Source: a virus. From it: DNA of 41,704 nucleotides. Position 1 is the first letter of the stretch. Each line of letters begins with the position of its first letter. Positions 2,872-41,704 of this stretch are shown piece by piece. The stretch spans positions 1 through 41,704 of IMG/VR virus record IMGVR_UViG_3300045988_041287. One strand, given 5' to 3'. Made by a program: the position numbers and the translations under genes. The notes beneath the pieces were generated by a model. It saw only the letters and a list, made by a program, of their open reading frames with translations. It made no database searches and was not told the origin of the DNA.

Positions 2872-3050
2872 TTTTCTGTCCCTCCATCCATCTTCGCACC
2901 GCAGTTGGGGCAGTAGAAAAAGCTGCTCCAGATCTCTGCTTTCAAAATCCGTTCCGCCTGCCACTTGGTCAGATGCGGCGCTCGCTTCTTCGGCGGCAGC
3001 TCGCCTTTTTCCGCCGCAATAGCGGTCGGGTTGTGCTTATGTTGCCCCAT
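2868..3050 (-). CDS. Small zinc-ribbon protein, 60 aa
   Basis: ORF track; C-terminal FYCPNCGAKM. Confidence 0.55.
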   Translation of the reverse strand: MGQHKHNPTAIAAEKGELPPKKRAPHLTKWQAERILKAEIWSSFFYCPNCGAKMDGGTEK

Positions 3051-3270
3051 CGGTTACCCTCCTGTTCCATGCCTCGGCGGCTTCATTTTTACAACTTTCA
3101 ATGTTTGCCAATGTGCGATTTTCTTCGCTAATGTTTGGACAATATCCAACAGTCCTTGCATCACAACTGCTGTCTTTGCACTGACACCAGATAGTAAAGC
3201 CACAGCTTTTATAAATTGCTTTAATTACCGCCTCCCCGCCGCAAAACGGGCACGGTTTCAGTTTAGCCAT
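3037..3270 (-). CDS. Lar-family restriction alleviation protein
   Basis: Trimmed to MAKLKPCPFCGGEAV...AAEAWNRR, which carries the hallmark LKPCPFCGG and C-terminal WNRR of the Lar family. 8-nt overlap with the upstream gene. Confidence 0.7.
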   Translation of the reverse strand: MAKLKPCPFCGGEAVIKAIYKSCGFTIWCQCKDSSCDARTVGYCPNISEENRTLANIESCKNEAAEAWNRRVTDGAT

Positions 3271-5799: not shown

Positions 5800-6023
5800 G
5801 CTCTGCACCGCCTCGCCGTGCACGCGCCGTAGCTGTCTACCCTGCTCCAGTCCAGTCCCCAGTGCTCCAGCGCCGCCTTGATCGCCGCCTGCGGGCTGGG
5901 GGCGCGAACGCGCAGGACTGTGTTCCCGCGCGTCACCCACCATTCTGCCTTGCCCTTGTACTCCCCGGCGCAGACGGTGTCCTCCTGCCGGCGGAAGCCG
6001 CCCGCCTGATACCCGGCGATCAT
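5796..6023 (-). CDS. Hypothetical protein, 75 aa
   Basis: Frame trimmed to MIAGYQ, which has an ATGA overlap with the stop of the 3D-domain gene. Confidence 0.5.
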   Translation of the reverse strand: MIAGYQAGGFRRQEDTVCAGEYKGKAEWWVTRGNTVLRVRAPSPQAAIKAALEHWGLDWSRVDSYGACTARRCRA

Positions 6024-6655
6024 TCCGTCCACCATACCGTCGCCTCCCGTGCGCCCAGCTTCAGCGCCTCCTCGTGCGTCGCAACAGCCAGATCGACGTG
6101 CCCGCCCAGCACGGCGCTGCCCGTATCCTCCGCGATGTAGCTGTGCAGGATACCGTCCCCATAATCGACATAAATCTCCGCCCCCAGCGGGATCACGTTG
6201 GGATCGACCGCCGCCGACCGCCCCGCCGTCACGTCCGTGCCCGTCGCGGTCTTTCCCGTCCCGCCGCCGCAGATGTGCGGACGCTTTTCGCAGCAGTAAT
6301 ATGTAATGGTGCAGTTATGGACCACGCCGTCAAACCCGCGCAGCTCGTCCAGATCGTTCCGCCCCGTCTCCGGGTATTCATTTTCCAGCGGCACGATCTC
6401 ATACTCCAGCTCCCGCGCGCCCCCGCCCGCTCCTGTAGGGGCGGACGCCTCTGTCCGCCCGTCGGCTTCCCCCTTGAGGGGGAAGCTGTCAGCCGTAGGC
6501 TGACTGATGAGGGTGGCGTTCTCGTCTCTGAGCTGCTTCGCGTTTGCCGCCGCCCGCGCCGTCCCCAGCACCAGCAGCTCAAGCACCGCCAGCGCCAGCA
6601 CCACCATCAGCACAAACTCGCCGACCACCCGCAGCGTCTCACGTCTCTTTCCCAT
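6020..6655 (-). CDS. 3D-domain (MltA/RlpA-like double-psi barrel) cell-wall protein with an N-terminal TM anchor
   Basis: Trimmed to MGKRRETLRVVGEFVLMVVLALAVLELLVLG. The C-terminus CTITYYC...ICGGGTGKTATGTDV..GRSAAVDPNVIPLGAEIYV...AEDTGSAV.GGHVDL is a typical 3D domain. Confidence 0.75.
   Translation of the reverse strand: MGKRRETLRVVGEFVLMVVLALAVLELLVLGTARAAANAKQLRDENATLISQPTADSFPLKGEADGRTEASAPTGAGGGARELEYEIVPLENEYPETGRNDLDELRGFDGVVHNCTITYYCCEKRPHICGGGTGKTATGTDVTAGRSAAVDPNVIPLGAEIYVDYGDGILHSYIAEDTGSAVLGGHVDLAVATHEEALKLGAREATVWWTE
6455..6545. repeat. GC-rich hairpin element (A-type) in frame inside the 3D-domain gene
   Basis: ggcttcccccttgagggggaagc and gtcagccgtaggctgac hairpins, followed by ctgatgaggg ... 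cgcgtttg. About 94% identical to 7809-7899. Translated as ANAKQLRDENATLISQPTADSFPLKGEADGR. Confidence 0.85.
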
Positions 6656-6666
6656 CGTTCTCTCCT

Positions 6667-7194
6667 TTACTCCACGATCGCCAGCAGCAGCCTCCGCAGC
6701 TCGTCCGTCCCCGTCTCCGGGGCGATCAGCCCCACCAGCATAAACCCCGCCTTCGCCGCGATCATCTCCCGGCATCCCGCCGGAGCGCGCAGCGTCAGCT
6801 CCACGTTTTCATATTCCGCAAGGATCGGCGCGAGCAGCGCCCTGTCTGCCCAGCGTACCCCGACGCCCGGCACGACCAGCGGCATTAGCTCCCGACCCAT
6901 GTAGTTCACGCTCACGCTCTGCCGCACAGCAGCTTTTTCTCCGTCTGCCGTATCCAAAAAGCAGATAGAGGGCGGCGCTTCCCGCTCCCGAATGCGCATG
7001 GCGTCCTTCTGCTTGTCGTTCAGCTCCAGCAGGCTCGGCAGATTCTCCGCCCGCAAATGCGGCAGCCCATCCACCGGGTACAGCGCCCGCCCGTCCGTGA
7101 TCCACTGCTGCACGCACCCGGAGCGATCTGTGTAGTTCACCAGCTCTGCCCAGCCCTCCTGCTTGCAGAGCTGCGCGATCTTCTTGATCTTCAT
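6667..7194 (-). CDS. Hypothetical protein, 175 aa
   Basis: Frame trimmed to MKIKKIAQLCK, which has an ATGA overlap with the upstream ORF. Confidence 0.65.
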   Translation of the reverse strand: MKIKKIAQLCKQEGWAELVNYTDRSGCVQQWITDGRALYPVDGLPHLRAENLPSLLELNDKQKDAMRIREREAPPSICFLDTADGEKAAVRQSVSVNYMGRELMPLVVPGVGVRWADRALLAPILAEYENVELTLRAPAGCREMIAAKAGFMLVGLIAPETGTDELRRLLLAIVE

Positions 7195-7475
7195 TCCTCT
7201 CCGCGCTCCTTCCGCAGTGTCCCGACGTCGATCGCCACCGCCGTCGAAGCCGCCACGATCTGATCCGCGATCTCGCACCCCTTCTCCCCGATCACCGGGC
7301 GCATCGCCTGCGCGATCATCTGCATCGCCGCCACAAAGATCGGCAGATCGTCCCACATCGTCGCGTTGACCATCGCATTCAGAAATGCTCCATAGTGCGC
7401 AAGCCCCGCCTGCATCGCTTTGGCGGCAGCTTCGCGATCCTTCGCCTTGCAAATTCTCTCCGCGTAACTCATCAT
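7191..7475 (-). CDS. Hypothetical protein, 94 aa
   Basis: Trimmed to MMSYAERI, which has an AAAGGAG RBS. Confidence 0.6.
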   Translation of the reverse strand: MMSYAERICKAKDREAAAKAMQAGLAHYGAFLNAMVNATMWDDLPIFVAAMQMIAQAMRPVIGEKGCEIADQIVAASTAVAIDVGTLRKERGEE

Positions 7476-7486
7476 GTTTTCTCCTT

Positions 7487-7726
7487 TCACCACGGGTAGC
7501 TGATCGCATCCCGTACACTTTCAATGGGTACAGACAGATTCCGCAGCAGCCTCAGCGCCTTGTCCATGTACGCCGTCGGCTTGTCGAATACGCGGTAAAG
7601 CGTCTGCTGGCAGCACCCGGCGTATTCACACGCCTTGCTGATCGGCACGTTCTGCGCCGCGATCTCCCCGCGTATCATGCACCGCAGCTTGTAGTCCGTC
7701 CCGCGCTCCACGCGCTGCTTCGGCAT
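7487..7726 (-). CDS. Small putative DNA-binding (HTH) protein
   Basis: ORF track; the segment ISKACEYAGCCQQTLYRVF resembles an HTH. Confidence 0.5.
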   Translation of the reverse strand: MPKQRVERGTDYKLRCMIRGEIAAQNVPISKACEYAGCCQQTLYRVFDKPTAYMDKALRLLRNLSVPIESVRDAISYPW

Positions 7727-7745
7727 TTCCGTCTCTCCCCCCCCC

Positions 7746-8180
7746 TCACCAATTCACACACAATTCAAAGTCCGTGACCTCGAACCCATCCGCACCATCC
7801 CCGGCTTCCCGCCCATAGGCTTCCCCCTTGAGGGGGAAGCTGTCAGCCGCAGGCTGACTGATGAGGGTGGAGTTCTCGTCTCCGAGCTGCCCCGCGTTTC
7901 CGCCCTCGTCCAGATAGTTCCTCCCGAACTCCCGCACAAAGTCCGCAGTGCTCCATCCCATCCTCTCCATCGCCATCCGCTGCCCGTATTCGTGCAGCGC
8001 CTGCGCCGTTTCGCGGCAGCGGTGTGCCGCCCGCTTACCGCTGATGTGGCAGCTCCCGTGGCAAAGATCCACCACCAGCCCGAGCTTTTCGCTCTTCCGC
8101 CGGTTCGCCCCGCCAAAAATGTGGTGACGATCCAACGGCTCATCCGTCCCGTTCTTCCCGCACAGCCAGCACGTCCGCAT
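7746..8180 (-). CDS. HNH/zinc-finger nuclease-like protein
   Basis: CWLCG...LDRHHIFGGANRRKSEKLGLVVDLCHGSCH follows the pattern CxxC..HH..N..CxxxCH. Confidence 0.55.
   Translation of the reverse strand: MRTCWLCGKNGTDEPLDRHHIFGGANRRKSEKLGLVVDLCHGSCHISGKRAAHRCRETAQALHEYGQRMAMERMGWSTADFVREFGRNYLDEGGNAGQLGDENSTLISQPAADSFPLKGEAYGREAGDGADGFEVTDFELCVNW
7809..7899. repeat. GC-rich hairpin element (A-type) in frame inside the HNH-like gene
   Basis: Near-identical to 6455-6545. Translated as GNAGQLGDENSTLISQPAADSFPLKGEAYGR. Confidence 0.85.
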
Positions 8181-8185
8181 TCATC

Positions 8186-8317
8186 TCACTCCTTCTTCTC
8201 GCCCGCCATGGCGACCATGCCCTGCGCAAAGATCAAAACCTTCTCCCGCGCGTCCTGCGGCAGCTTGTCCAGCTCCCGCGTCAGGCTCTCCGCCTGCTTC
8301 TTCTGTTCCTCTGACAT
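8186..8317 (-). CDS. First small ORF of the leftward early operon, 43 aa
   Basis: Manual translation: MSEEQKKQAESLTRELDKLPQDAREKVLIFAQGMVAMAGEKKE. GAGGTG RBS. Confidence 0.45.
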   Translation of the reverse strand: MSEEQKKQAESLTRELDKLPQDAREKVLIFAQGMVAMAGEKKE

Positions 8318-8496
8318 CCTTTTCACCTCGTTTGCCTTTCGTAGCTCAGAACTTTTTTGTTATTCATTTCATCCCTCGGCTATACGTTATCATAACTCAG
8401 CATCGTTGTCAAGCACATTTTTATTTCTAGGCTATACTTTTTGTTGACTTTCATCGCCTCGCGTGTTAATGTAGTGCCAGAAAGGTGGTGATCCCG
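8318..8496. promoter_or_regulatory. Divergent promoter/operator region of the lysis-lysogeny switch
   Basis: On the plus strand: TTGACT (8444-8449), 17 nt, TAATGT (8467-8472). On the minus strand: TTGACA (8412-8407). GGCTATAC occurs as a direct repeat at 8378-8385 and 8430-8437. Confidence 0.5.
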
Positions 8497-8880
8497 ATGG
8501 GCACGATCAGTGAGCGCATCGCATTTCTTATTAAAGACCAGCATGAAACGCGTACCTCGTTCGCGGAGAAAATCAACTTGAGCCAGCCGTTTGTTTCCGG
8601 CTTGTGCTCTGGCGCGAAGCAGCCCAGCGACCGCACGATCTCGGACATCTGCCGTGTGTTCGGTGTCTCGGTTGCTTGGCTTACAGATGGCGTCGGCGAG
8701 ATGTATGTCCGCCGCAGCGCCAATGAAGAGCTGGCGATCCTCGTCAACGATCTCATGTCCGATGCCGACGAATCCTTCCGCAAGCGGTTCGTTTCCCTCC
8801 TGCTTGCTCTCCCGCCGGAAAGCTGGGCAGCGATCGAGGATTTTGCGAAAAAATTGCAAAAAAACACCGTGGACGATTAA
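8497..8880 (+). CDS. XRE-family CI-like repressor (no S24 peptidase domain)
   Basis: MGTISERIAFLIKDQHETRTSFAEKINLSQPFVSGLCSGAKQPSDRTISDICRVFGVSVAWL is a classic HTH_3. It is transcribed divergently from the early operon. Confidence 0.8.
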   Translation: MGTISERIAFLIKDQHETRTSFAEKINLSQPFVSGLCSGAKQPSDRTISDICRVFGVSVAWLTDGVGEMYVRRSANEELAILVNDLMSDADESFRKRFVSLLLALPPESWAAIEDFAKKLQKNTVDD

Positions 8881-8904
8881 CTCGTCCACGGTGTTTCTCT
8901 TTTC
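8863..8904 (+). terminator. Rho-independent terminator after the repressor
   Basis: Perfect 14-bp stem aacaccgtggacga/tcgtccacggtgtt, loop ttaac, then tctcttttc. An A-run upstream suggests it may work in both directions. Confidence 0.8.
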
Positions 8905-9000
8905 ACCAAAATTCCGTAGCAAAATTTGTTTACTTTTATGCTCCCCGTTATCTGCTCCCCGTGGTAAACTTTTTATATACTTTTTTAATGAGGTTTCACC

Positions 9001-10584
9001 ATGGATTTTTTGACAGATTTCCTTCTGTATTTTTTTATCTCGTTTTGTTGCTACTTACTCGGTGCATTGTCACGTGAGCTTGGCACATTATGCCGCCGCG
9101 CATTCTTTGTTTCTCTGTATGACTGTTTATCCATCGCCTTTCTATTTCTCGGCTTTATCGTCTCTGTTCCCGTGTATCTCCTAACTTCCTGTGAATGCCG
9201 ACGCGCTTCTGCCCAGGCTGAAAAGCGTTCGCAAGCGGAGGTGCATCGTTTGCAGGCAGAAGCGCAGCACACCAAAGACCGCTTGGATGAATATGCCCGT
9301 ACCGAAAAATCCACCCGCGACAAAATTTTCACTGAAGCCTACAAAATCGGCTATGATGATGGGCATAGCAGTGTCGAAGAATATGAAGTAAAAGGTGCAT
9401 ATCGCAACGGTTACCAAGACGGTCACTGTGAATGCTTGTACCGCTGCCGAATGCAGGCGCAGCACTACATTGCGCACTTCCAGTCTACGCCCGCCTTCGA
9501 TGCCGTAAAATCCTACGACTTTTCTGCAAACCCCCGGCTCTATTCCGCCGCCTCTGAACCGATCCGCTACGCAGCCCCGTTTTCTCTTGCTGTCAAAACC
9601 TATGGGGAAGGCGGCATCGTCTACGACACCACGCTGTATTCCTGCACCTGTCCCGATTATCAGTTCCGAAAAGTCCCTTGCAAGCATATGTTTTACCTTG
9701 CTCTTGATTTTGGTCTGCTGGACACATTGGATCATGACGATCTGCGCGACGCGCTCGTAAAAATGCAGACGCAATTTTCCAAACTTCGCAAGCAGCAGGA
9801 GAAAACGACCCGCTCCATCCAGCGTCTCCATGATCTTCAGCAGAACGTCGCCAGCATCTCCGCCCCTGGCAGCTCTGCCATCGAAGTTCCCCGCAACACT
9901 GAGCTGCCTGTGCTCACCGCCAGCCAAGACCGAAAGCGCTGCAAAATGCTGTCCGATTATGAGTATAGTTCCTTGCCTCCTGCCGCACGCTATCAGCTCG
10001 CATTGGAATACGAGCTTGAGCGCAAGAAGAATCGCCCCGAAATTGGCAAAGCATTTGAGCGCTACATCGGATATTGCTGCGAGCAGCGGCAGTATGCCGT
10101 CGTATATAACGGTGCAACGGAGAAAAAGCACGACCTCGGACGCGATCTGATTGCCATCAGCCCCGACCGAAAGACCGTCTATGTGATCCAGTGCAAATAC
10201 TACGCAGCCGATAAAGAAGTCCACGAGAACGCCGTTATGCAGCTTTTCGGCAGCGTTTCCATGTTTGCCGCCACATACCCCGGCGTCTCCGTTTTTGGTG
10301 TCCTGGTCTCCTCCTGCCCGCTCTCAGTAGATGCAAAAAACTGCATTGGTCACTTCAACGCCCTTCGGTATTTTGAGAACATCCACGCCGACCTGCGTCA
10401 CTACCCCGTTGTGAAGTGTGCTACCTCTTCCTCTGGTGCAAAACATTTCTATTTGCCGTTTGATTCCTGCTATGATACCGTCGTCGCCGATCACTACGAA
10501 TTGACCGTTTCCGCCGCAATTTCAAAAGGCTTCATTCGTGCATTGAAGCCCGCAAAACCTGCTACGTCGAATCGGCATATTTAA
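9001..10584 (+). CDS. Membrane-anchored SWIM zinc-finger / Mrr-type (PD-(D/E)xK) nuclease-domain protein
   Basis: Two N-terminal TM helices and coiled coils. SWIM motif CTCPDYQFRKVPCKH at 9643-9687. Mrr_cat-like core GKAFERYIGY...GRDLIAISPDRKTVYVIQCKYY, with QCK at 10189-10197. Lower GC than the flanking sequence. Confidence 0.7.
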   Translation: MDFLTDFLLYFFISFCCYLLGALSRELGTLCRRAFFVSLYDCLSIAFLFLGFIVSVPVYLLTSCECRRASAQAEKRSQAEVHRLQAEAQHTKDRLDEYARTEKSTRDKIFTEAYKIGYDDGHSSVEEYEVKGAYRNGYQDGHCECLYRCRMQAQHYIAHFQSTPAFDAVKSYDFSANPRLYSAASEPIRYAAPFSLAVKTYGEGGIVYDTTLYSCTCPDYQFRKVPCKHMFYLALDFGLLDTLDHDDLRDALVKMQTQFSKLRKQQEKTTRSIQRLHDLQQNVASISAPGSSAIEVPRNTELPVLTASQDRKRCKMLSDYEYSSLPPAARYQLALEYELERKKNRPEIGKAFERYIGYCCEQRQYAVVYNGATEKKHDLGRDLIAISPDRKTVYVIQCKYYAADKEVHENAVMQLFGSVSMFAATYPGVSVFGVLVSSCPLSVDAKNCIGHFNALRYFENIHADLRHYPVVKCATSSSGAKHFYLPFDSCYDTVVADHYELTVSAAISKGFIRALKPAKPATSNRHI

Positions 10585-10643
10585 CAAAAGCACCGCCTGT
10601 CTTTTGTGAATTTGGTGGCGTCACCGAAATGCTACCTCTGGTC

Positions 10644-10679
10644 TAAAGAAAACCGCCGGAGCGCTGACCTGCTCCGGCG
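10644..10679 (-). terminator. Terminator downstream of the 32-aa ORF
   Basis: 9-bp stem cgccggagc/gctccggcg. On the minus strand it is followed by TTTTCTTT. Confidence 0.6.
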
Positions 10680-10685
10680 TTCCCT

Positions 10686-10784
10686 TTACTTCGTCAGATT
10701 CTGTATGAACCTCCACACGATCCATACCGTATCTGCCCGCATTGTCTCCACCAGCTCCACGATCTCACGCTTCTTCTGCTCCAT
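10686..10784 (-). CDS. 32-aa ORF downstream of the LexA-box promoter (MEQKKREIVELVETMRADTVWIVWRFIQNLTK)
   Basis: Strong GGAGAGGAG RBS 6 nt upstream of the ATG, with its own promoter and terminator. Confidence 0.45.
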   Translation of the reverse strand: MEQKKREIVELVETMRADTVWIVWRFIQNLTK

Positions 10785-10821
10785 TGTTTTCTCCTCTCCG
10801 TATGACCCGCACTTATATGTT

Positions 10822-10835
10822 AGAACATACGTTCT
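10822..10835. promoter_or_regulatory. Gram-positive LexA (Cheo/SOS) box overlapping a minus-strand promoter
   Basis: AGAACATACGTTCT matches GAAC-N4-GTTC. It lies in the 17-nt spacer between TTGCAA (10846-10841) and TAACAT (10823-10818) on the minus strand. Confidence 0.55.
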
Positions 10836-10867
10836 GTATTTGCAATTGTGAATCTCTCCAAATCTCT

Positions 10868-10910
10868 GCGGCGGATTTTTACCCCTCCAAAAATCCGCCG
10901 CGTTTTTTGT
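10868..10910 (+). terminator. Strong plus-oriented rho-independent terminator
   Basis: 13-bp stem gcggcggattttt/aaaaatccgccgc, loop acccctcc, then gttttttgt. Confidence 0.75.
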
Positions 10911-10949
10911 GCATCCTGCCACTTTCGCGCTTCCAGATATTGTGTTACC

Positions 10950-11132
10950 CTAGGATAAAGGGGTTTCCTTGCGCTTCGTCTGTGCGCCCATCGCGCACGC
11001 AACGCTCACCCAAACTGGCGAGCCGGAGATGTATTCGATCTTAAAGCCCTGCACATTCTGTATCTCCTGCCCGTCCAGCATCACGCGCACCCGTTCGCCC
11101 TCTGCTTCCACCGTGATCCTTCTCATCTGCAT
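10950..11132 (-). CDS. Hypothetical protein, about 60 aa
   Basis: Frame trimmed to MQMRRITVEAEGERV, which has a GGGGAGG RBS. Transcribed divergently from the XRE/int operon. Confidence 0.5.
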   Translation of the reverse strand: MQMRRITVEAEGERVRVMLDGQEIQNVQGFKIEYISGSPVWVSVACAMGAQTKRKETPLS

Positions 11133-11228
11133 ATCCTCCCCGTCAGCCCGGTCTCCCGCGGCTGTTTTTTGTTCTCGTTTCCTGTACCTATATCGTACCA
11201 GCATCTTCCTGCAAATGTCCATACTCCA

Positions 11229-11279
11229 AATTGCGAATCGCTACCCTGATTTTGAAATACCGTAACCTGAATTGCAAAT
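11229..11279 (+). promoter_or_regulatory. Two AATTGC(G/A)AAT boxes upstream of the XRE-int operon (-35 elements or operators)
   Basis: AATTGCGAAT at 11229-11238 and AATTGCAAAT at 11270-11279, 41 bp apart. Each lies 17 nt upstream of an A/T-rich hexamer. A third, inverted copy sits at 10838-10847 beside the LexA box. Confidence 0.45.
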
Positions 11280-11321
11280 TTCTTATCCTGTTTTTAAAAA
11301 CCTGTTTTGGAGGCGTATATT

Positions 11322-11888
11322 TTGACATCCACGGAGAAGTTGCAGCCCTATTTTGAATCGTATTCACAGAAGATCAAGCAGCGGCGAAATGAACTTGGTA
11401 TGTCCTCGAAAGCGCTCGCCGCAAAGTCCGGCGTCCCGTACTCAAACATCTGCCGCGTCGATACCGGCGCGCAGGCGAACCCGCTGCTCTATAACGCCGC
11501 CGCCACGGCTGACGTTCTGGGTCTCTCGCTGGACGAGCTGTGCGGTCTTACCGTCCCCGAAAAAAATACCGATGAGCTCAAATCCCGCTGCCGAAAGCTG
11601 GAGCTCGAAAACGCCCGCCTTGCAGCCACAAGAGCCGCGCAGCAGGAGCAGATCAAGGCTGTGCATTCCCTCTGCTACGTTCTGGTCTTTTTCTGCGTGC
11701 TGCTCGCGCTGTCTCTTGTCTCCTATCTGCTCATCGATTCGCAGGTCACCGACGCCGGGATCATTCGCGGCGGTAAGCTTTCCGTCGCTGCATGGCTTTT
11801 TATTTCCCTGATCGCCGCCTCCGTCATTTCCATCGGCATCGTGATCCTGCTCATCATCCGCAAAGAACGCAGAAATTCCCCATCGTAA
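11322..11888 (+). CDS. Membrane-anchored XRE-family HTH protein (HTH + coiled coil + 2 TM helices)
   Basis: TTG start at 11322, 8 nt after GGAGG. HTH: RRNELGMSSKALAAKSGVPYSNICRVDTG. C-terminal TM helices: LCYVLVFFCVLLALSLVSYLL and AAWLFISLIAASVISIGIVILLII. Confidence 0.65.
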   Translation: MTSTEKLQPYFESYSQKIKQRRNELGMSSKALAAKSGVPYSNICRVDTGAQANPLLYNAAATADVLGLSLDELCGLTVPEKNTDELKSRCRKLELENARLAATRAAQQEQIKAVHSLCYVLVFFCVLLALSLVSYLLIDSQVTDAGIIRGGKLSVAAWLFISLIAASVISIGIVILLIIRKERRNSPS

Positions 11889-11916
11889 TTCTGTTATCAA
11901 TTCCCGGAGGTATCCC

Positions 11917-12960
11917 ATGAAAGTCCCCGAACCCCGTAAGCTCCCCAGCGGTACATACTTCATCCAGCTCCGCCTCGGCGGGCAGAGCGTCCCCATCTCC
12001 GCCCCCACCCGCCGTGAGTGCATCCAGCAGGCGCAGCTCAAAAAAGCAGAGCACCGCGCCGGTCTCCGCACCACCGCGCCTAAAACTGACCAGACGCTTC
12101 GTCAGATCATGCAGGCATACATTGATGCGCTTCCGCCCGATACATCCCCTTCGACGGTGCGCGGCTACTACATCATTATGGACAATCGTTTCCCATCTGT
12201 AATCGATACGCCCGTCTCACGCATTGACTGGTCGTCTGTGATGGAGGCGCTGACCGCCAAATATTCGCACAAAACCCTCAAAAACACATGGGGTTTTCTC
12301 ACCTCCTGCCTTCGTTCCGCCGGTGTCCCTACCCCAGATGCCAACGTCCCCAAGCAGAAAAAGCAATCCCCTATGCCGCACTTTCTTGAACCCGAACAGA
12401 TTTTGCAAGTGCTTCCGCTCCTGCGCGGAAAAAAATACGAGATTCCCGCGCTGCTTGCCCTGCACTCTCTCCGTCGGTCCGAGATCATGGCGCTCGACTA
12501 TTCCGACATTGATCTCAAAAAGAATACGATAACCGTCCACGGCGCGCTCGTACCTGATAAAAACAATGACCTCGTATACCGGGACGAAAACAAGACGCTG
12601 TCCAGCCAGCGTGTCATTCCCATTATGATCCCACGTCTCGTGGAGGCGATCCGCGAGACCGGGCAAACCTCCGGGCGCATTTGGTCTAAAACCCCCCACG
12701 CTCTGTATCATACTATGGAAAGAGTTTGTGCAGAGCTGGGCATTCCAAACGTAGGCGTCCATGGCTTGCGTCACAGCTTTGCATCCCTTGCCTATCATCT
12801 TCATTTTTCCGAATTGGAGACAATGGAGATCGGCGGGTGGTCGGATCATAACACCATGCGCAAAATCTACACGCACCTTGCGCAGGCGGACCGCCTGAAA
12901 GCGCAAAACCGCATGGCGCAGTTTTATGAAAATGCTAACGAAAATGCTAACGAAAAATAA
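11917..12960 (+). CDS. int: Tyrosine site-specific integrase
   Basis: HGLRHSFASLAY...GWSDHNTMRKIYTHL provides the R..HxxR..Y catalytic signature. Adjacent to attP. Confidence 0.9.
   Translation: MKVPEPRKLPSGTYFIQLRLGGQSVPISAPTRRECIQQAQLKKAEHRAGLRTTAPKTDQTLRQIMQAYIDALPPDTSPSTVRGYYIIMDNRFPSVIDTPVSRIDWSSVMEALTAKYSHKTLKNTWGFLTSCLRSAGVPTPDANVPKQKKQSPMPHFLEPEQILQVLPLLRGKKYEIPALLALHSLRRSEIMALDYSDIDLKKNTITVHGALVPDKNNDLVYRDENKTLSSQRVIPIMIPRLVEAIRETGQTSGRIWSKTPHALYHTMERVCAELGIPNVGVHGLRHSFASLAYHLHFSELETMEIGGWSDHNTMRKIYTHLAQADRLKAQNRMAQFYENANENANEK
12929..12952 (+). repeat. Two tandem copies of AAAATGCTAACG (putative arm-type integrase sites) overlapping the int 3' end
   Basis: Exact 12-mers at 12929-12940 and 12941-12952. 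They encode the ENANENANEK tail of Int. Confidence 0.6.
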
Positions 12961-12984
12961 ATCCCCTGTATTTTCAACGTGTTT

Positions 12985-13025
12985 ACGGCTGCTCAATCAG
13001 GGTTCGAATCCCTCATCCCCTGCCA
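12985..13025 (+). other. Putative attP core: the 3' end of a tRNA gene (T-arm, acceptor strand and CCA), not a complete tRNA
   Basis: cagGGTTCGAATCCctcatcccctgCCA ends at 13025. No complementary 5' acceptor strand or anticodon arm lies upstream. Confidence 0.6.
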
Positions 13026-13032
13026 TAGCACG

Positions 13033-13066
13033 AAAAACCAGCAATCCGTTGCGATTGCTGGTTTTT
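13033..13066. terminator. Bidirectional hairpin terminator next to the tRNA-like core
   Basis: 14-bp stem aaaaaccagcaatc/gattgctggttttt, loop cgttgc. Confidence 0.7.
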
Positions 13067-13139
13067 CCTTATATGTCAATGTTTTCCCAGCTTTTTAGCA
13101 TTATGTTTTCTCATAAAATACTCTGCATTCGCACCCGCA

Positions 13140-13183
13140 AAAATGCTAACGCAGAATACAAAATGCTAACGAAAATGCTAACG
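13140..13183 (+). repeat. Three further copies of AAAATGCTAACG (putative arm-type sites) on the other side of the core
   Basis: Exact 12-mers at 13140-13151, 13160-13171 and 13172-13183. A partial inverted copy (ttttagcatt) is at 13094-13103. Confidence 0.6.
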
Positions 13184-13648
13184 CCCAGCAGCCACGCACC
13201 GATAATATGCCGCGATTTTCTTCTCCGCACCGCCGCCGTCGCAATCCATCAAAAACGCCTTTGCCATCTTTGCGTAATAGTCCGGGCGATCCACGCCGTA
13301 CTCGCGCGCGACCGCGCAATAGTCCGAGTAGATCATGTTCATCGCCGCGTACCACGCCGACGTGCCCAGCGCCTGCGCATCCACGCCGACGCTCCGCGCC
13401 GCCGCTGTCGTCTGCTCCTGCGTCCAGTGCTCGCCCGTGCTGCCGTCCTCGTTTTCCATTTCGGATACCCACGCCCGCGCGTCCGCCTCCGTAAAGGTCT
13501 CCGAGTGCTCGCTGTGCAGCGCGTCCAAGCTGCACAGCAGCCCCGCGATGACGCCTGCCTCCTCGATATGTCCGAGCGTCATCGGCTCGTCGATGAGCTT
13601 GTGCAGCCGCTCGTGGAGCTTGCGCTTGTACTCGCATTTTTCCATCAC
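13178..13648 (-). CDS. Hypothetical protein, 156 aa
   Basis: ORF track; a conserved-looking HWTQEQT...NMIYSDY segment; function unknown. Confidence 0.65.
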   Translation of the reverse strand: MMEKCEYKRKLHERLHKLIDEPMTLGHIEEAGVIAGLLCSLDALHSEHSETFTEADARAWVSEMENEDGSTGEHWTQEQTTAAARSVGVDAQALGTSAWYAAMNMIYSDYCAVAREYGVDRPDYYAKMAKAFLMDCDGGGAEKKIAAYYRCVAAGR

Positions 13649-13986
13649 ATTTCCTCCTGCACCATGCTGTACAGCCTGTCCAAGTCGTTCACGTCAAACC
13701 GCAGCTCCCCAATAATGGGGATGTTGACCGGCAGCTTCTTGCCGTCCAGCTTCGGACGTGCGACGCTGTACAGCTTTTCCACGTCCACGTTGCCGCTCTC
13801 ATCCATCACGCCCATCATCTGCACCACGGGATGCTCCCGCAGCGCAAGGAGCTTGTCCCTGCCGCCCTCCATCACAAGTGCCAGCATGATTCCCGCTCCG
13901 ATGCCCTTGCCGGTCGGCAGGCGGGGTAAAATCTCATTGTCCGCAAAGCGCGTCACCGCGCTCATGATCTGGTCGATCGTCGCCAT
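13645..13986 (-). CDS. Hypothetical protein, 113 aa
   Basis: ORF track; ATGA overlap with the downstream gene. Confidence 0.65.
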   Translation of the reverse strand: MATIDQIMSAVTRFADNEILPRLPTGKGIGAGIMLALVMEGGRDKLLALREHPVVQMMGVMDESGNVDVEKLYSVARPKLDGKKLPVNIPIIGELRFDVNDLDRLYSMVQEEM

Positions 13987-14035
13987 ACTCTACCTCCGTT
14001 TCGTGCGGGGCGGCTTGTGCCGCCCCTTTTGTGTG

Positions 14036-14584
14036 TCAGTTGCCGCAGCACCCGCCGCACTTGGGAAGCGGGTTGTAGAGCGACTGCGCCGTTGTGCCCG
14101 TGCCGGTGGTAACGTCTGCGACCATCTTCGGGTAAAACGTCGCGTTTGCATAGGTGACAATGCTGTTGTCAGCGCAGCAGCGGCGCTCTGCCTCCATCTT
14201 GATCTTCTCGTTCAGACGCTCCTCCACGCAGGCGATGTCCTGCCGCGCCAGCGTGAAGCTGTCCTCGGTCTTCTGGTTGTGCACCGCCTGTGCCGCCAGC
14301 CCATTGCGCACGTCCTTGAGCTGCCCGTCGATGTACGCATACACCTCCAGCATCTTCTGATCGTTGTAGGTGTTGGCTTTCAGCAGCGCGATCTCGCTGT
14401 CCTTCGCCGCCAGCTTCCCTTCCCGGTCCAGCTCGTACCGTGTCACCGGCGTGTTCTCGCTGCAGCCACCGTTCTGCCAGCCGCCAAACAGATTGCCAAG
14501 ACCCCCGTTCAGAACACCCAGCCCCGTGCCGATTGCGCCCAGCGTGACGCCCAGGTTGCCCTTGCCATTGCTTGCATACTCCAT
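14036..14584 (-). CDS. Hypothetical protein with a Gly-rich N-terminus, coiled coil and C-terminal CGGCCGN
   Basis: ORF track; AAAGGAGG RBS. Hairpins lie on both sides (14007-14026 and 14691-14712). Confidence 0.65.
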   Translation of the reverse strand: MEYASNGKGNLGVTLGAIGTGLGVLNGGLGNLFGGWQNGGCSENTPVTRYELDREGKLAAKDSEIALLKANTYNDQKMLEVYAYIDGQLKDVRNGLAAQAVHNQKTEDSFTLARQDIACVEERLNEKIKMEAERRCCADNSIVTYANATFYPKMVADVTTGTGTTAQSLYNPLPKCGGCCGN

Positions 14585-20190: not shown

Positions 20191-20226
20191 ATTGTATCAG
20201 CCTCCGGCGGCAAATCTCTAGTGCAC
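20191..20226 (-). promoter_or_regulatory. Copy 2 of the GTGCACTAGAGA-N18-TAnnnT motif (candidate internal late promoter)
   Basis: Minus strand: GTGCACTAGAGA (20226-20215), 18 nt, then TACAAT (20196-20191). Located in the gap between the giant ORF stop and the next RBS. Confidence 0.5.
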
Positions 20227-23200
20227 TACTGTGCCCATTCGTCGATTTTTTCCAGAGCCTTTTTGCGATCCTTTCCCAGCATTGCATACACCGTCGCCAG
20301 ATGTGCCCGCAGATCAATGCGCTCCCGCTCGCTCGCCTCCCGGAAGTCCTGCCGGCACAGTGCCGTGATCGCCTGGCTGATCTCGCCGTTTGTGTAGCCT
20401 GCCTTCTTCAGCTCCCGCACCACCTGTGTCACATTCTTCCCGGTCATCGCCGCCTCGCGCAGGCTCTTACCCTGCTCCGTCCACGGCTCAAAGCCCGTCA
20501 GCTTGTAGCTTTCTCCGGCAATGGCGTCCTTCTGCTCCGGCGTAAAGTCGTAGCTGTCCAATAAATCGTACAGCTCCGACTTTTTGCTCCCGCTCACCGT
20601 GTTCCCCTCTGCGTCCTTCCAGCCGTCCGCGCCCGGCAGCGCCTGCCGGTACTCCAGATACGCGCCCACGTCCGCGTTCTCGTTCAGAAGCCTTTGGAGC
20701 ATTGCCTGCTCCTTTTCGCTCGCGATCACATTGTAGTAATACATCGCCTTTGCCTCGTCTGCGATGTCGTATGCGTTCAGCGCCGCCAGCTTCGCTTCCC
20801 TCTCGCTTGCGCCCTCCGGCACGTCCACGTCCTTCATCGCCTGGATGAGCTTCCACGCCTCGCGCTGCTTCACGTCTGCCGCGCTCATCGCGAGGTACGC
20901 GTTCGTCTCCTTCATATTCAGATTTGAAAAATCGTTGTCCACCCACTTCTTTGCCTCGCTCGTCGCGGTCTTCCCGGCGATGCTTACCTTGATCGTGTTG
21001 AGGATCTTGTCTCCCGTCGTTTCGTTGAACACCGGGTACTGCATGAGCAGCTCGCCGTCCTTGTTTTTCTTAAAGCTCCCGCCCTGCACCACGGCGTAAA
21101 TGCCCTGCGCCGTTTTCTTTACCGCACCGCCGCCAAGCGGAGCAAACAGATACGTTACGGGCTTTGCTACCTCTGCCCCGATCTTCTCCCACCGAACGTC
21201 GTTTGCCATGTCCTTGTCCGTTGCAGCGTTGATGATGGTCAGAACATTCGGGATAGCCTGCGTCACGGGCAGCCGTCCGCCGTCCAGATCGTCTGTAACG
21301 AGTGCCAGCACCTGCGTCCCCGGCACATCGTCCAGTATCGCCTCGCCCAGCCCCGTCAGCGCAGCACTCAGCCGCTTCTTGTTGGTCGTCTCGATCCACT
21401 CTCCGTCCCGTCCGTGAATAAATTCCTCCGTCGCTGCGTCAAAGATATTACCCAGCCGCTTCCCGGTCGTATCACCCACAAAGTCGTTTGCCATGTTGAT
21501 CGGGTCTGGCAGCACACGCCCGCCGAATATGCTCTCGAACGCTTCATTGAACAGCCACGCATAAATGCAGTATTTCAGCAGCCTCCATGCGTATTCCGCC
21601 ACAAATCTGCTATTGCTCCAGTCTGGATGATCCTTGCTCATGTAATAGGCTGTGTCCTTGAACACGTTGCGCGGCAGGTTGTTCACCTCAAGCTGGAACT
21701 GCGTCAGCATCTTTGTAAACGGGTTCTTTGATTCGTAGCGCGTCGGCATTTCGCCCTTGCTGCGTGCCGCCATCACGTCCGCCGCGTACTGGTCCGCCTC
21801 GTCCATCGCATCGACCTCGTTCAGCCCCCGCCGCAGGTTGTCGTTATAGCGCACGCGCACGACTGCCTCAGCCGTGAAGTTGTCCACAACGTTCATTACC
21901 GCCCCGGCTGCGTCGCTGATTTTCCCCATGCGTCCATTTACAAGCGGATCGCTGCCCCGTCGGTTCGTCAGGAACGCGCTGCGCTCCACGATCCCGTCCC
22001 GGTCTCTCACGTTTCGGACTGTCTGCCACATCGCCGCGAACGTCTGCAAGCCGCCGTGCTGCATTGCTGTCTGCACCAGCGGTGCAAAGTTCGTCGCCGC
22101 TGACCTCAGGTTGAGCGCGACCATATTCGCGCCGACCCGACCGATGGTTTTCTGCATCACATTGTAGATTTTTCGTCCGTGGTCTCGCTCCATGTCCCGG
22201 TCTGTCCGGCTCTTCTTGCCCGCCAAAAGGTTTGTGTACTCCTCCAGTTCGTTCACATACCCGCTCAGTTGGAACTTTGCCTTCTCCAGAATTTCCTCGA
22301 CCTTCTTGTCCCGCTCATACTGGCTCAACTCCGTGTCGGCTCGTATTGCATCGACCTGCTGCTGAACGCCCTCCGATGACGCCATATAGCGTATCTCCGA
22401 TGCCAGCGCCCGCAGTCTCTGGATATTGTCCGTCTGATAGATCACGCTCGCCGCGCCCTCTATGTATCGGTCAAAGCCTTCCACCGCGTCATACGCTGTG
22501 TTGAAGCCCAGGCGTTCCTCTGCGTTGCCGAAATACTTGATGCCCGGTCGGAACATATACGTCCTGCCCGCGATCGTAGTCGGCAGCTCCGTCACATCCC
22601 CGTTCACACCCAAAGCGTTTGCCACCATTGCCAGAATGCCGTCCGTCTGCCCCGGCTGGAAGTGCGGGAAGTATCCGCTTCTTCTCGGCACTGGCTCGTA
22701 GCCGTTTTCAATGCGCTTTCGGTTCATGGCTTCCAGCGTTTCGTCGTAGATTTTTCGGAACTCCGCCACGGCGCTTTCGATCTTCGTCTTGTCAAGGCTC
22801 GGACTTGTTTTCCACAGCTCGCGTACCACGGCTTCCCACTCGGCAAGCGTCTTTCCATCCCGCTTTGCATCCATCGGCTTCTTCTTGAGCATTTCGATGT
22901 TGTTCATCGCCTCGCCGTAGAGCTGCACCGCGTGCGCCTCGCTCACAAGGTCGCCCGTCCGCTTCTCGCGGCTCATATTCATTGCCTTCACGCGCCCGCG
23001 CATCTCGTTCTTAAACCGCGTCGCCTTCGCCTCGTCCCGGCGTACCTGTGCAAAGTAGTCGTTGTTGATACGCTCCGCATCCTCCCGTGCGAACACATCC
23101 CGCGTGTTGCGCGTCATCGTTTCCCGCTGCAGGAAGAAGCCCTTCTTGTCCTTCGTGCTCTCGATATTCGTCAGGTGCTCACGGGCATACTCGCGGTTCT

Positions 23201-41629: not shown

Positions 41630-41704
41630 ATGTATGTCCGCCAATCCCGGCGTCTCGATCCAGCGCGGCAAAACCGCGCTCGACCCAACCGCCCGAAAAA
41701 AAAT
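41630..41704. repeat. Terminal direct repeat (right copy), identical to 1-75
   Basis: Exact 75-nt identity with the start of the window. Confidence 0.95.

Follow-up and report, generated by a model that had tools for sequence, protein, structure and literature searches.

A swappable cargo gene between the repressor and the integrase of a temperate phage encodes a predicted membrane-anchored nuclease with a SWIM zinc finger

The window analyzed here, which means the whole 41,704-nt stretch of IMGVR_UViG_3300045988_041287 with positions counted from its first letter, comes from a temperate phage with a circular genome of about 41.6 kb, whose host is probably a gut species of Clostridia or Oscillospiraceae. 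Its lysogeny module contains an open reading frame (ORF) of 527 codons, whose surroundings are as follows.

8485..8880, + strand: CI-type HTH_3 repressor (Pfam HTH_3, E 4.6e-8); the gene callers start it at 8497, as seen in the identical contig L174
8862..8896, no strand: terminator-like hairpin (15-bp stem) that extends over the repressor stop codon and bounds the variable slot on the left
8933..10644, + strand: swappable cargo cassette composed of a 68-nt AT-rich leader, the ORF and a 60-nt tail; missing from the sister phages L173 and L180 (blastn)
9001..10584, + strand: ORF for a membrane-anchored SWIM and Mrr-type nuclease, 527 aa, ATG start
10654..10679, no strand: GC-rich hairpin 3' of the ORF, just within the conserved right flank
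11307..11888, + strand: HTH_3 protein (RstR-like, below cut-off) with two C-terminal transmembrane (TM) helices, from profile and translation
11917..12960, + strand: tyrosine integrase (Pfam Phage_integrase, E 1.3e-11)

Independent gene calls on identical contigs gave the same coordinates for the ORF, and a GAGG ribosome-binding site is present at 8991-8994, 7 nt upstream of its start. A sequence-only reading of this DNA had assigned the gene to the lysogenic strand within a repressor-integrase module, which was confirmed by gene calls and Pfam matches of the neighbors. It had also put the gene between the repressor terminator and int. The hairpin at 8862-8896 bears out the left side of this placement; on the right side the ORF stops short of int, as two small minus-strand ORFs and the HTH gene with TM helices lie in between. 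With a hairpin separating the repressor from the ORF, and with no confident sigma-70 promoter found in the 68-nt leader, expression of the window copy in the lysogen is something we infer. An Rfam scan of 8000-13500 gave sub-threshold matches only, all of them on the terminator hairpin, and a tRNA search of the window found none.

Base composition of the ORF differs from that of its surroundings. Its GC content is 0.513 vs 0.588 in the window, and its GC3 is 0.578 vs 0.64-0.82 in 11 other genes, both values being the lowest of the 12 genes tested; its composition falls into the lowest 4% of equal-sized windows. The earlier description of the gene as more AT-rich than the genome, with about 30% GC in the first 60 nt, was therefore correct (measured at 0.30), although the genome itself, estimated then at above 60% GC, reaches only 58.8% in the window. 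This atypical composition marks the ORF as foreign to the phage backbone.

Two sister phages, L173 and L180, show that the gene is exchangeable. Their flanks are 92-96% identical to the window (blastn), their integrases are 94-96% identical and their repressors are related, but positions 8933-10644 of the window are replaced in them by two other membrane-protein cassettes, distinct from each other and unrelated to the ORF; the family HMM found no match in either phage. Homology ends on the left at 8896 (L180) or 8932 (L173) and resumes on the right at 10645 in both, and the hairpin at 10654-10679 is common to every cassette seen in the slot. Since unrelated cassettes occupy exactly the same position, we consider the gene a swappable cargo and not a part of the core lysogeny machinery. 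The variability of the slot is documented by three genomes, and integrase-anchored scans yielded just two loci, one of them viral and the other a close metagenomic one. Together with the atypical composition, the shared boundaries fit the moron-like behavior that had been ascribed to the gene from its sequence. This three-way swap defines a precise cargo hotspot, which could be a good place to look for more membrane-associated exclusion genes.

The protein encoded by the ORF is composed of the following parts.

9007..9183, + strand: membrane anchor, hydrophobic helices aa 3-21 and 43-61 (Kyte-Doolittle 1.82 and 2.42; AF2 helices 2-30 and 36-115)
9184..9345, + strand: predicted cytoplasmic helical stalk, aa 62-115 (AF2), K/R-rich near the membrane; supported by a positive-inside analysis of the family
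9337..9426, + strand: two AY(K/R)xGY(D/Q)DGH repeats, aa 113-122 and 133-142 (translation)
9637..9690, + strand: SWIM zinc finger, aa 213-230 (Pfam PF04434, 26.4 bits vs a gathering score of 19.6)
9736..9855, + strand: second long helix, aa 246-285, joining the SWIM finger to the nuclease (AF2)
10045..10275, + strand: Mrr_cat PD-(D/E)xK nuclease core (Pfam PF04471), with E353, D382 and Q397-x-K399 invariant
10363..10554, + strand: conserved C-terminal module, with K472, C473, P486 and Y491 invariant (alignment of 55 sequences)

TM segments were called by a simple Kyte-Doolittle hydropathy scan with 19-residue windows, and the two segments at the N-terminus agree with the two TM helices proposed earlier as the first element of the domain order. 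Two helices are characteristic of the window lineage, while 48 of the 55 family members have just one, starting near residue 5. In these 48 one-helix proteins, the mean number of K and R residues is 0.29 ahead of the helix vs 3.25 behind it; 45 have more of them behind the helix and none has fewer. Such a charge skew places the nuclease, by prediction, in the cytoplasm. As the predicted extracellular part comprises only about 5 residues in most family members, it seems unlikely that the protein blocks injection from the outer face, in the manner of Ltp. Of the 150 best representatives, 130 retain the anchor, which indicates that localization is under selection and not incidental. The stalk between the TM segment and the SWIM finger measures 110-212 residues across the family; this length is not obviously needed for cutting at an entry pore and may instead serve a sensing or oligomerization role.

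The existence of a duplicated AY(K/R)xGY(D/Q)DGH motif, noticed in the sequence-only reading, is not in doubt, but it does not extend to the family: in the alignment of 55 sequences the repeats are limited to the closest relatives, and pLDDT falls below 50 at residues 110-142 of the AF2 model. We thus dropped the idea that AYKxGYDDGH marks a function common to the family, the motif being lineage-specific and modeled with low confidence. The repeats resemble GX3 repeats of the Yae1_N/FliH type, and Yae1_N matches were seen in relatives. The SWIM finger, previously read as lying between two helical stretches, is indeed there, as PF04434 scores above threshold and the AF2 helices 36-115 and 246-285 lie on its two sides. 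It is represented by the string CTCPDYQFRKVPCKH at aa 215-229, which carries the CxCxnCxH signature, and its predicted zinc ligands (C215, C217, C227 and H229) are invariant in the 55 sequences; the motif was found in 83 of the 150 best representatives.

The C-terminal part of the protein contains the Mrr_cat-like PD-(D/E)xK core that had been proposed for it. PF04471 matches aa 349-425 with 32 bits (gathering score 21) and Mrr_cat_2 with 25.9 bits (vs 22), and D382, Q397 and K399 are all held in the string GRDLIAISPDRKTVYVIQCKYY. Together with E353, these residues are invariant in 55 sequences whose identity to the query ranges from 23 to 89%, and D..(Q/E)xK is kept in 146 of the 150 best representatives. 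In the AF2 model, E353 sits on helix 345-362, D382 directly precedes strand 383-386, and Q397 and K399 lie on strand 392-399. While pLDDT exceeds 90 throughout the nuclease, the relative placement of the domains is unreliable, given a pTM of 0.50. Foldseek matched the model with a probability of 1.00 to MspJI (the best PDB fold match), NucS/EndoMS, AF1548 (1y88) and Hjc; the nuclease domains of Card1, Cdn1 and Avs3 were also matched, Can2 is another structural neighbor, and viral structure models labeled 'restriction endonuclease' match the fold. Modeling thus confirmed a restriction-endonuclease-like alpha/beta fold, and both this fold and the catalytic residues, lack of either of which would have spoken against the nuclease, are present. 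The protein is a member of the Mrr_cat family with an intact predicted active site. The C-terminal module resembles the 'sunset' domain NF051437, but this is a resemblance only, since the window protein scores 14.3 bits, P0034 23.7 and P0022 23.2 at a cut-off of 27 bits.

Database searches did not connect the protein to any named defense system, in agreement with the earlier impression that none could be recognized. In PADLOC-DB v2.0.0, the window protein gave nothing significant, the best match being REase_MTase_IIG (E 0.0012), confined to some 55 residues of the nuclease core; among 10 further members, the best was a weak match of the short member P0070 to the nuclease region of ZorD (E 1.7e-4) and all others were no better than E 0.004. 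Profile searches of the window protein against PHROG and NCBIfam gave no significant match, and a family profile run against all PDB chains returned coiled-coil noise only (ATP synthase b, Rad50). A tblastn search of the window protein and P0034 against 50,697 deposited phage genomes gave no match. Literature searches on a SWIM-type nuclease and on the 'sunset domain' found nothing relevant. As neither PADLOC nor PHROG gives a match, assignment to defense rests on context and domain logic.

The context is conserved within the SWIM subfamily of a large family. The superfamily to which the protein belongs, none of whose members has been characterized, counts at least 1,195 clusters at 50% identity (E <=1e-30) and appears on 262 viral contigs. 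With its very large size and conserved slot, the family shows that the ORF is not an isolated oddity. A survey of homologous neighborhoods, suggested by the sequence-only reading, found the order repressor, gene, integrase of a prophage in 18 of 19 dereplicated lineages of the SWIM subfamily. An integrase (11 tyrosine, 7 serine) lies less than 3 kb downstream on the same strand in 18 of the 19 loci, and a same-strand HTH gene was detected upstream in 16 of the 19 by a custom HMM, 15 of these 16 being confirmed by Pfam HTH_3. Peptidase_S24 was found in five of the 16 upstream repressors, and this self-cleaving domain is missing in the other 11. In the loci L003, L006 and L009, gaps to adjoining genes go down to 9-52 nt, which suggests co-transcription with the repressor. 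No conserved partner or signal-generating gene was found beside family members in the neighborhoods examined. Homologues thus turned out to be variable cargo and not core genes of replication or recombination. Relatives that share the nuclease core but have no SWIM finger occur outside prophages, in many phyla, and relatives carry the NCBI label 'restriction endonuclease'. Neighbors of some chromosomal SWIM-less relatives match REase_II, BrxHI, SngC, PDC-S21 and reverse-transcriptase models, several strong matches being among them; with neither a baseline nor a per-locus breakdown behind these matches, the link to defense that they point to is suggestive only.

What might such a protein do? 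We lean, with moderate confidence, towards a cargo cassette encoding a membrane-anchored, stalked Mrr-type nuclease which is made in the lysogen and guards it against incoming foreign DNA, mainly that of superinfecting phages. In this scenario, the protein would be anchored in the membrane by its N-terminal helices while most of it extends into the cytoplasm, and the helical stalks would allow dimerization and keep the SWIM finger and the nuclease at most a few tens of nanometers from the membrane. DNA would be bound by the SWIM finger, perhaps with a contribution from the C-terminal module, and cut by the nuclease as it emerges at the inner face of the membrane during injection. The tether would keep the enzyme away from the nucleoid, so that self could be told from non-self by location. 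What we infer here, beyond the features described above, is expression in the lysogen, DNase activity, a defense phenotype and spatial discrimination.

The same context evidence (the slot, the cassette swap and the synteny) would also fit abortive infection, in which a membrane-held nuclease, triggered via the SWIM finger or the stalk, degrades host and phage DNA alike, or the TM hairpin perturbs the membrane, and clonal lysogens are spared by death or arrest of the infected cell. The long stalk and the SWIM finger look more like a sensor or regulator than a simple tether, the structural neighbors Card1, Cdn1, Can2 and Avs3 are effector nucleases of defense systems, several of which act through abortive infection, and the TM part of the single-gene system Epona, discussed below, has been described as holin-like, two TM helices being present in the window lineage too. 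On the other hand, the PHROG matches pointing in this direction (Abi-alpha-like, E 0.089; holin, E 0.28) are not significant, a pore could hardly be built from what is mostly a single TM helix exposing about 5 residues to the outside, and no partner or signal-generating gene is conserved alongside. We thus regard abortive infection as possible but rather unlikely, and note that the sequence and context evidence does not separate it from direct restriction. A role for the protein as a modification-dependent, Mrr-like Type IV restriction enzyme, with the SWIM region in place of the winged-helix reader and with membrane attachment as a secondary trait, seems improbable. The Mrr_cat and Mrr_cat_2 matches come with the D...QxK configuration typical of Mrr, the closest fold in the PDB, MspJI, is modification-dependent, and the NCBI label of the relatives agrees with restriction; yet no Mrr_N or other modified-base reader domain was matched by Pfam in the window protein at E up to 1, and retention of the anchor by so many representatives is hard to reconcile with attachment of secondary importance. 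The L003 prophage, which carries a homologue, encodes C5 and N6/N4 DNA methyltransferases, an awkward observation for such an enzyme but not an excluding one.

The conserved position raises another idea, namely that the gene is a component of lysogeny control (an induction sensor, an anti-repressor or an accessory factor of recombination) standing where immA stands in ICEBs1, whose operon has the order immR-immA-int. Synteny in 18 of 19 lineages, the short intergenic gaps, 11 of 16 neighboring repressors devoid of a self-cleaving domain, and Pfam lists of the examined modules in which no M78/ImmA-type protease appears would all agree with this. Nevertheless, the replacement of the gene by unrelated cassettes in sister phages with nearly the same integrase and a related repressor leads us to down-weight an ImmA-like role despite the conserved synteny. 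The gene also co-occurs with integrases of either type (tyrosine or serine) and with repressors that do or do not carry S24, its SWIM-less relatives are found outside prophages, and its composition is foreign to the backbone, which makes a function in lysogeny control, in our opinion, very improbable. We give hardly any credence to a membrane-anchored ribonuclease or another nuclease not directed at DNA, which would work at the membrane on transcripts of the phage or the host. The plan of RNase Y (TM helix, coiled coil, nuclease) is similar, the N-terminal TM segment and coiled coil of P0022 are weakly like RNase_Y_N (E 0.006) and NCBIfam RNase_Y (E 0.0029), and some PD-(D/E)xK enzymes of the kind of Card1 and Can2, both structural neighbors here, also cut RNA. 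Still, the RNase Y matches are below threshold and cover low-complexity coiled coil only, the SWIM finger is generally tied to DNA-binding proteins, and Mrr_cat enzymes of known substrate are DNases.

Returning to the tethered nuclease that cuts incoming DNA, its strongest form would make the window protein the first representative of a nuclease-based type of superinfection exclusion that is widespread among the prophages of gut Firmicutes, where a single chain cuts DNA as it emerges and separates self from non-self purely by location. We put this forward as a speculation that may well prove wrong. If the gene is a defense gene, it represents a compact design of anchor, stalk, zinc finger and nuclease, and immunity could depend on the site of the enzyme and not on sequence or modification. 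The spatial reading predicts that removal of the anchor would turn protection into self-toxicity. In the human gut, few mobile elements are as abundant as the prophages of Oscillospiraceae and related Clostridia, and to our knowledge almost nothing has been established about how these prophages exclude competitors.

Several known systems share parts of this plan. In Shedu and in LmuA of Lamassu, a PD-(D/E)xK effector is joined to an N-terminal sensor domain that varies, and Shedu consists of a single gene. Like the window protein, Shedu (SduA) and LmuA combine a C-terminal nuclease effector with variable N-terminal modules for sensing or localization, but their nuclease families are different or marginally related, as PADLOC gave no Shedu match and an E of 0.034 for LmuA. 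Type IV enzymes such as Mrr and MspJI share with the ORF protein the catalytic domain family, the D...QxK configuration and a matching fold. They differ in that the ORF protein has neither Mrr_N nor an SRA-like reader and possesses an anchor, stalks and a SWIM finger, which those soluble enzymes lack.

Genes of the Sie2009/Ltp type vary between related phages. Gram-positive phages carry genes for membrane-associated Sie proteins within their lysogeny modules, and these genes are transcribed while the phage resides as a prophage (PMC7693887, PMC3952083). The ORF likewise belongs to a lysogeny module, where it lies downstream of the repressor and upstream of the integrase. Sie2009 is small and membrane-associated via a hydrophobic N-terminus, Ltp is a lipid-anchored lipoprotein transcribed from the prophage, and both act at the membrane or outside it to stop DNA from being injected, no enzymatic domain having been described in them (PMC7693887, PMC3952083). 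The ORF protein, in contrast, has 527 aa, an N-terminal anchor, a predicted cytoplasmic bulk and an intact nuclease.

In logic, the tethered nuclease resembles Zorya type I, in which the ZorAB membrane motor acts with ZorC and ZorD to degrade invading phage DNA locally (PMC11946911). Each combines attachment to the membrane with a long coiled coil in the cytoplasm, an element for DNA binding (putative in the ORF protein) and a nuclease (in Zorya this is ZorD, labeled Mrr-like in PADLOC). However, Zorya is encoded by four genes and includes a peptidoglycan-binding domain as well as a MotAB-like motor driven by protons, while the ORF protein is a single chain with no motor, and the ZorA, ZorB and ZorC models found no PADLOC match among 11 family members. 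If the location-based reading is true, the ORF protein would be a one-protein counterpart of local DNA degradation by Zorya.

The closest parallel is Epona, a single-gene anti-phage system from chromosomal integron cassettes of Vibrio cholerae, which is active in E. coli (bioRxiv 10.1101/2024.07.02.601686). It combines Mrr_cat with two TM segments on one polypeptide carried as mobile cargo, and the window protein has both Mrr_cat and the two TM segments. Epona has been described without a SWIM finger, long stalks or a sunset-like C-terminal module, a comparison made by description in which only the shared Pfam domain is known. It also resides in a Vibrio integron cassette and not in a Clostridia prophage, and most members of the family studied here have one TM helix. 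As Epona is a validated single-gene defense of similar build, the concept put forward for the ORF is not without precedent; what is new is the cassette swap, the fixed slot between repressor and integrase, the size of the family and the predicted cytoplasmic position of the nuclease.

The 527-aa reading frame proposed at 9001..10584 (+) proved exact: it starts with ATG, has a ribosome-binding site (GAGG) 7 nt upstream, and was given the same coordinates by independent gene callers on identical contigs. By Pfam, its product contains a SWIM finger at aa 213-230 (26.4 bits against a gathering score of 19.6) and an Mrr_cat domain at aa 349-425 (32 bits against 21), with Mrr_cat_2 also matched; a hydropathy scan, the source of all our transmembrane (TM) calls, places two hydrophobic helices at the N-terminus (aa 3-21 and 43-61). 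The protein belongs to both the Mrr_cat and the SWIM domain family, and all features of these families that could be tested were found. The atypical composition pointed out by the sequence-only reading is also real. GC content of the gene is 0.513 (0.30 in the first 60 nt), within the lowest 4% among windows of equal size, and its GC3, at 0.578, is below that of eleven other window genes (0.64-0.82); the window itself is at 58.8% GC, and not above 60% as had been assumed. The duplicated AY(K/R)xGY(D/Q)DGH motif is present (aa 113-122 and 133-142), but it is confined to the closest relatives. It resembles the GX3 repeats of Yae1_N/FliH and lies in the sole low-confidence stretch of the AlphaFold2 model.

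A word-indexed search returned 144 relatives, one of them an identical protein whose cluster has 64 member sequences. When 1.84 billion representatives were searched exhaustively with a profile, 8,361 matched at E<=1e-3 and 1,195 at E<=1e-30. Among the best 150 representatives, the SWIM signature was found in 83, an N-terminal TM helix in 130 and the D..(Q/E)xK pattern in 146, while pattern scans located the family in no fewer than 536 genome loci and 262 viral contigs. MAGs of Clostridia and Oscillospiraceae are the source of the SWIM forms, and shorter SWIM-less forms are spread over many phyla; the NCBI relatives from Dysosmobacter and Oscillibacter bear just the label 'restriction endonuclease', and the family had no match among deposited phage genomes. 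Across 55 aligned members that have the SWIM finger (23-89% identity to the window protein), the SWIM ligands C215, C217, C227 and H229, the nuclease residues E353, D382, Q397 and K399, and K472, C473, P486 and Y491 of the C-terminal module are all invariant; on this evidence the Mrr-type active site and the zinc finger are intact. The window lineage is without a linker ('PWLA...EYQL..YESLFPWL', about 100 aa) that most members have.

The same 55 sequences served as input for the AlphaFold2 model, whose mean pLDDT is 82, exceeding 90 across the SWIM and nuclease regions. It consists of long helices (36-115 and 246-285) and an alpha/beta core (345-437), and its pTM of 0.50 makes the relative placement of the domains unreliable. 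The family has no match in the PDB by sequence. Foldseek against the PDB matched MspJI, NucS/EndoMS, AF1548 and Hjc, as well as the nuclease domains of Card1, Cdn1 and Avs3, all with a probability at or near 1.00; structure matches in BFVD are 'restriction endonucleases' of uncultured siphovirus. A single TM helix starting near residue 5 was called by hydropathy in 48 of the 55 family members. Flanking K+R residues average 0.29 on its N-terminal side and 3.25 after it, with the excess after the helix in 45 of these 48, and thus, by the positive-inside rule, the stalk, the SWIM finger and the nuclease are predicted to lie on the cytoplasmic side. The helix and the SWIM finger are 110-212 residues apart (median 141). 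With just about 5 residues predicted outside the cell, blocking at the outer surface in the manner of Ltp is unlikely.

The surroundings of the gene in the window are as follows.

Features of the lysogeny region of the window
8485-8880, plus strand: HTH_3 repressor (Pfam)
8862-8896: hairpin with a 15-bp stem, overlapping the stop codon of the repressor gene
9001-10584, plus strand: the SWIM and Mrr-type nuclease gene (Pfam)
10654-10679: GC-rich hairpin, 3' of the nuclease gene
10686-10784 and 10950-11126, minus strand: two small ORFs of 32 and 58 aa (gene caller), no Pfam or NCBIfam match
10867-10902: hairpin between the nuclease gene and the HTH+TM gene
11307-11888, plus strand: HTH_3 protein with two C-terminal TM helices (HTH+TM); RstR-like match of 32.5 bits, well under the cut-off of 80
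11917-12960, plus strand: tyrosine integrase (Pfam)

All remaining genes of the window occupy the minus strand: left of this region lie the early genes, right of it those for lysis, tail, head and packaging. No tRNA was found in the window, and no confident promoter in the 68-nt leader 5' of the nuclease gene. The window ends in a 75-nt direct repeat (1-75 = 41630-41704), and the same genome occurs in two ENA records as 41,684-bp contigs; we infer a circular genome of 41,629 bp, which with assembler k-mer overlaps of 75 and 55 nt fits both assemblies. The HTH+TM gene, immediately 5' of the integrase gene, is kept in two sister phages (L173 and L180), and its product looks, by sequence, like a membrane-anchored repressor-like regulator. 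Both small minus-strand ORFs are also kept there; a second switch, adjoining int, may be made up of these ORFs and the divergent HTH gene. Elsewhere, a 2,762-aa ORF (20226-28514, minus strand) has a precomputed MuF_C match and thus appears to encode a giant multi-domain virion-associated protein; a 2,771-aa ORF lies at the matching position beside the integrase in the unrelated prophage L003. A 77-aa early gene (3037-3270, minus strand) has a weak precomputed match to Lar_restr_allev (restriction alleviation), so the phage may carry an anti-restriction function beside its own nuclease cargo.

This place in the lysogeny operon is conserved among the SWIM forms of the family. Dereplication at 80% identity reduced 172 loci to 107 clusters, and we classified neighbours with HMMs iterated from Pfam-annotated seeds. 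By HMM, 17 of 19 SWIM-form lineages have a same-strand integrase gene no more than 3 kb downstream; the integrase of L003 brings the number to 18, and Pfam confirmed all 18 (11 Phage_integrase, 7 Resolvase + Recombinase). An HTH gene precedes the homologue on the same strand in 16 of the 19, being HTH_3 by Pfam in 15 of these, with Peptidase_S24 in 5 and Phage_CI_repr in 3. The spacing between genes can be very tight (at locus L006, 20 nt from the repressor gene and 9 nt from that of the integrase; at L009, 12 nt from the integrase gene), which points to co-transcription of homologues with the repressor in many prophages. The association is looser for SWIM-less forms, which have an integrase downstream in 22/54 genome loci and 12/21 viral loci; others, P0095 and P0115 among them, have ordinary chromosomal surroundings. 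SWIM-less relatives outside prophages (L011, L012 and 16 integrase-free genome loci, a subset of L019-L090) come from Chloroflexota, Planctomycetota, CPR, cyanobacteria and one archaeal MAG. Strong PADLOC matches near chromosomal SWIM-less relatives were REase_II, BrxHI, SngC, PDC-S21 and reverse transcriptases (60 neighbours, a count with no baseline rate). L003, which has a SWIM-Mrr homologue, combines candidate defence and counter-defence cargo in one element: L003:792-1364 and L003:1366-4549 also encode a C5 DNA methylase, an N6/N4 methyltransferase and a hairpin protein like Acb2/Tad1, a family of anti-defence sponges.

The sequence-only reading had taken the gene for a moron, and we checked whether homologues are core genes instead. 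Integrase anchoring recovered the two sister phages, with integrases 94% (L173) and 96% (L180) identical to that of the window. By blastn, the flanks of L173 match window 5963-8342 at 94.6% and 10645-12926 at 95.9% identity, those of L180 match 6029-8342 at 92.0% and 10645-14500 at 95.9%, and the repressor gene is about 83% identical in both. Window 8933-10644 has no blastn counterpart in either sister, and the family HMM had no match in their slot between repressor and integrase, which is filled as follows.

Cassettes of the sister phages
L173:3587-4728, about 1.1 kb: TM segment with GYxDGY repeats, then a multi-TM protein ending '...KYHRKNC...PCKKCNP'
L180:3450-4728, about 1.3 kb: 135-aa multi-TM protein and a 257-aa protein with a central TM helix, a Pro/Ser-rich linker and '...KFHRSTC...PCKKCNP'

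These two cassettes are unrelated save for their final ~37 nt. Each of three near-identical phages thus has its own membrane-protein cassette in the interval bounded by the two hairpins. The gene behaves as a moron, and the homologues are variable cargo, not core genes. The membrane proteins of both sister cassettes have the Cys-rich ending '(K/H)(Y/F)HR..C ... PCKKCNP', which in L173 weakly matches Ada_Zn_binding (E 0.0046) and whose pattern is like that of the C-terminal module, degenerate as it is, of the SWIM-Mrr family. The L173 cassette is read in two overlapping frames (98 and 320 aa), which may reflect a frameshift. The same lysogeny region contains a second variable cargo site, empty in the window (~8342-8365), between early operon and repressor: L173 has an extra ~600 nt there (L173:2379-2979) encoding a 124-aa ORF with an N-terminal TM helix (L173 2430-2804), and L180 2329-2920 is a similar-sized stretch without window counterpart.

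Most likely, the protein works as a membrane-tethered nuclease made in lysogens. It would cut foreign DNA at the inner membrane face, with SWIM as the DNA-binding or sensing element, and the tether and stalks would limit its reach and so spare the chromosome. That it is instead an abortive-infection effector is possible, if rather unlikely. We find it improbable that it is a modification-dependent Type IV enzyme; Mrr-type enzymes of that class differ from it in the Mrr_N reader domain, which it lacks. A lysogeny-control factor, suggested by a position like that of ImmA, is somewhat less probable again, being weakened by the cassette swap and by the observation that integrase type and repressor type make no difference. 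A membrane RNase on the plan of RNase Y seems very improbable.

The favoured mode of action has precedents in Epona and Zorya, taken up below, and in lactococcal and streptococcal phages, whose lysogeny modules carry genes for membrane-associated Sie proteins (PMC7693887, PMC3952083). The C-terminal module of the protein is similar to the NCBIfam 'sunset' domain, with a score under the cut-off. As this adds to the missing Mrr_N and Zorya motor and to the lack of any PADLOC match for the family, the protein is outside every named defence system that could be compared. In build it is like Epona, a validated single-gene defence in which Mrr_cat is joined to two TM helices (bioRxiv 10.1101/2024.07.02.601686), a likeness taken from Epona's description. 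In logic, though without the motor, it is like Zorya, whose membrane complex has a cytoplasmic coiled coil of 70 nm and recruits a DNA binder and a nuclease, so that phage DNA is degraded (PMC11946911). What we rate as new is the particular design: a putative single-protein system, carried by prophages and tethered to the membrane, in which a PD-(D/E)xK nuclease comes with a SWIM finger and stalks.
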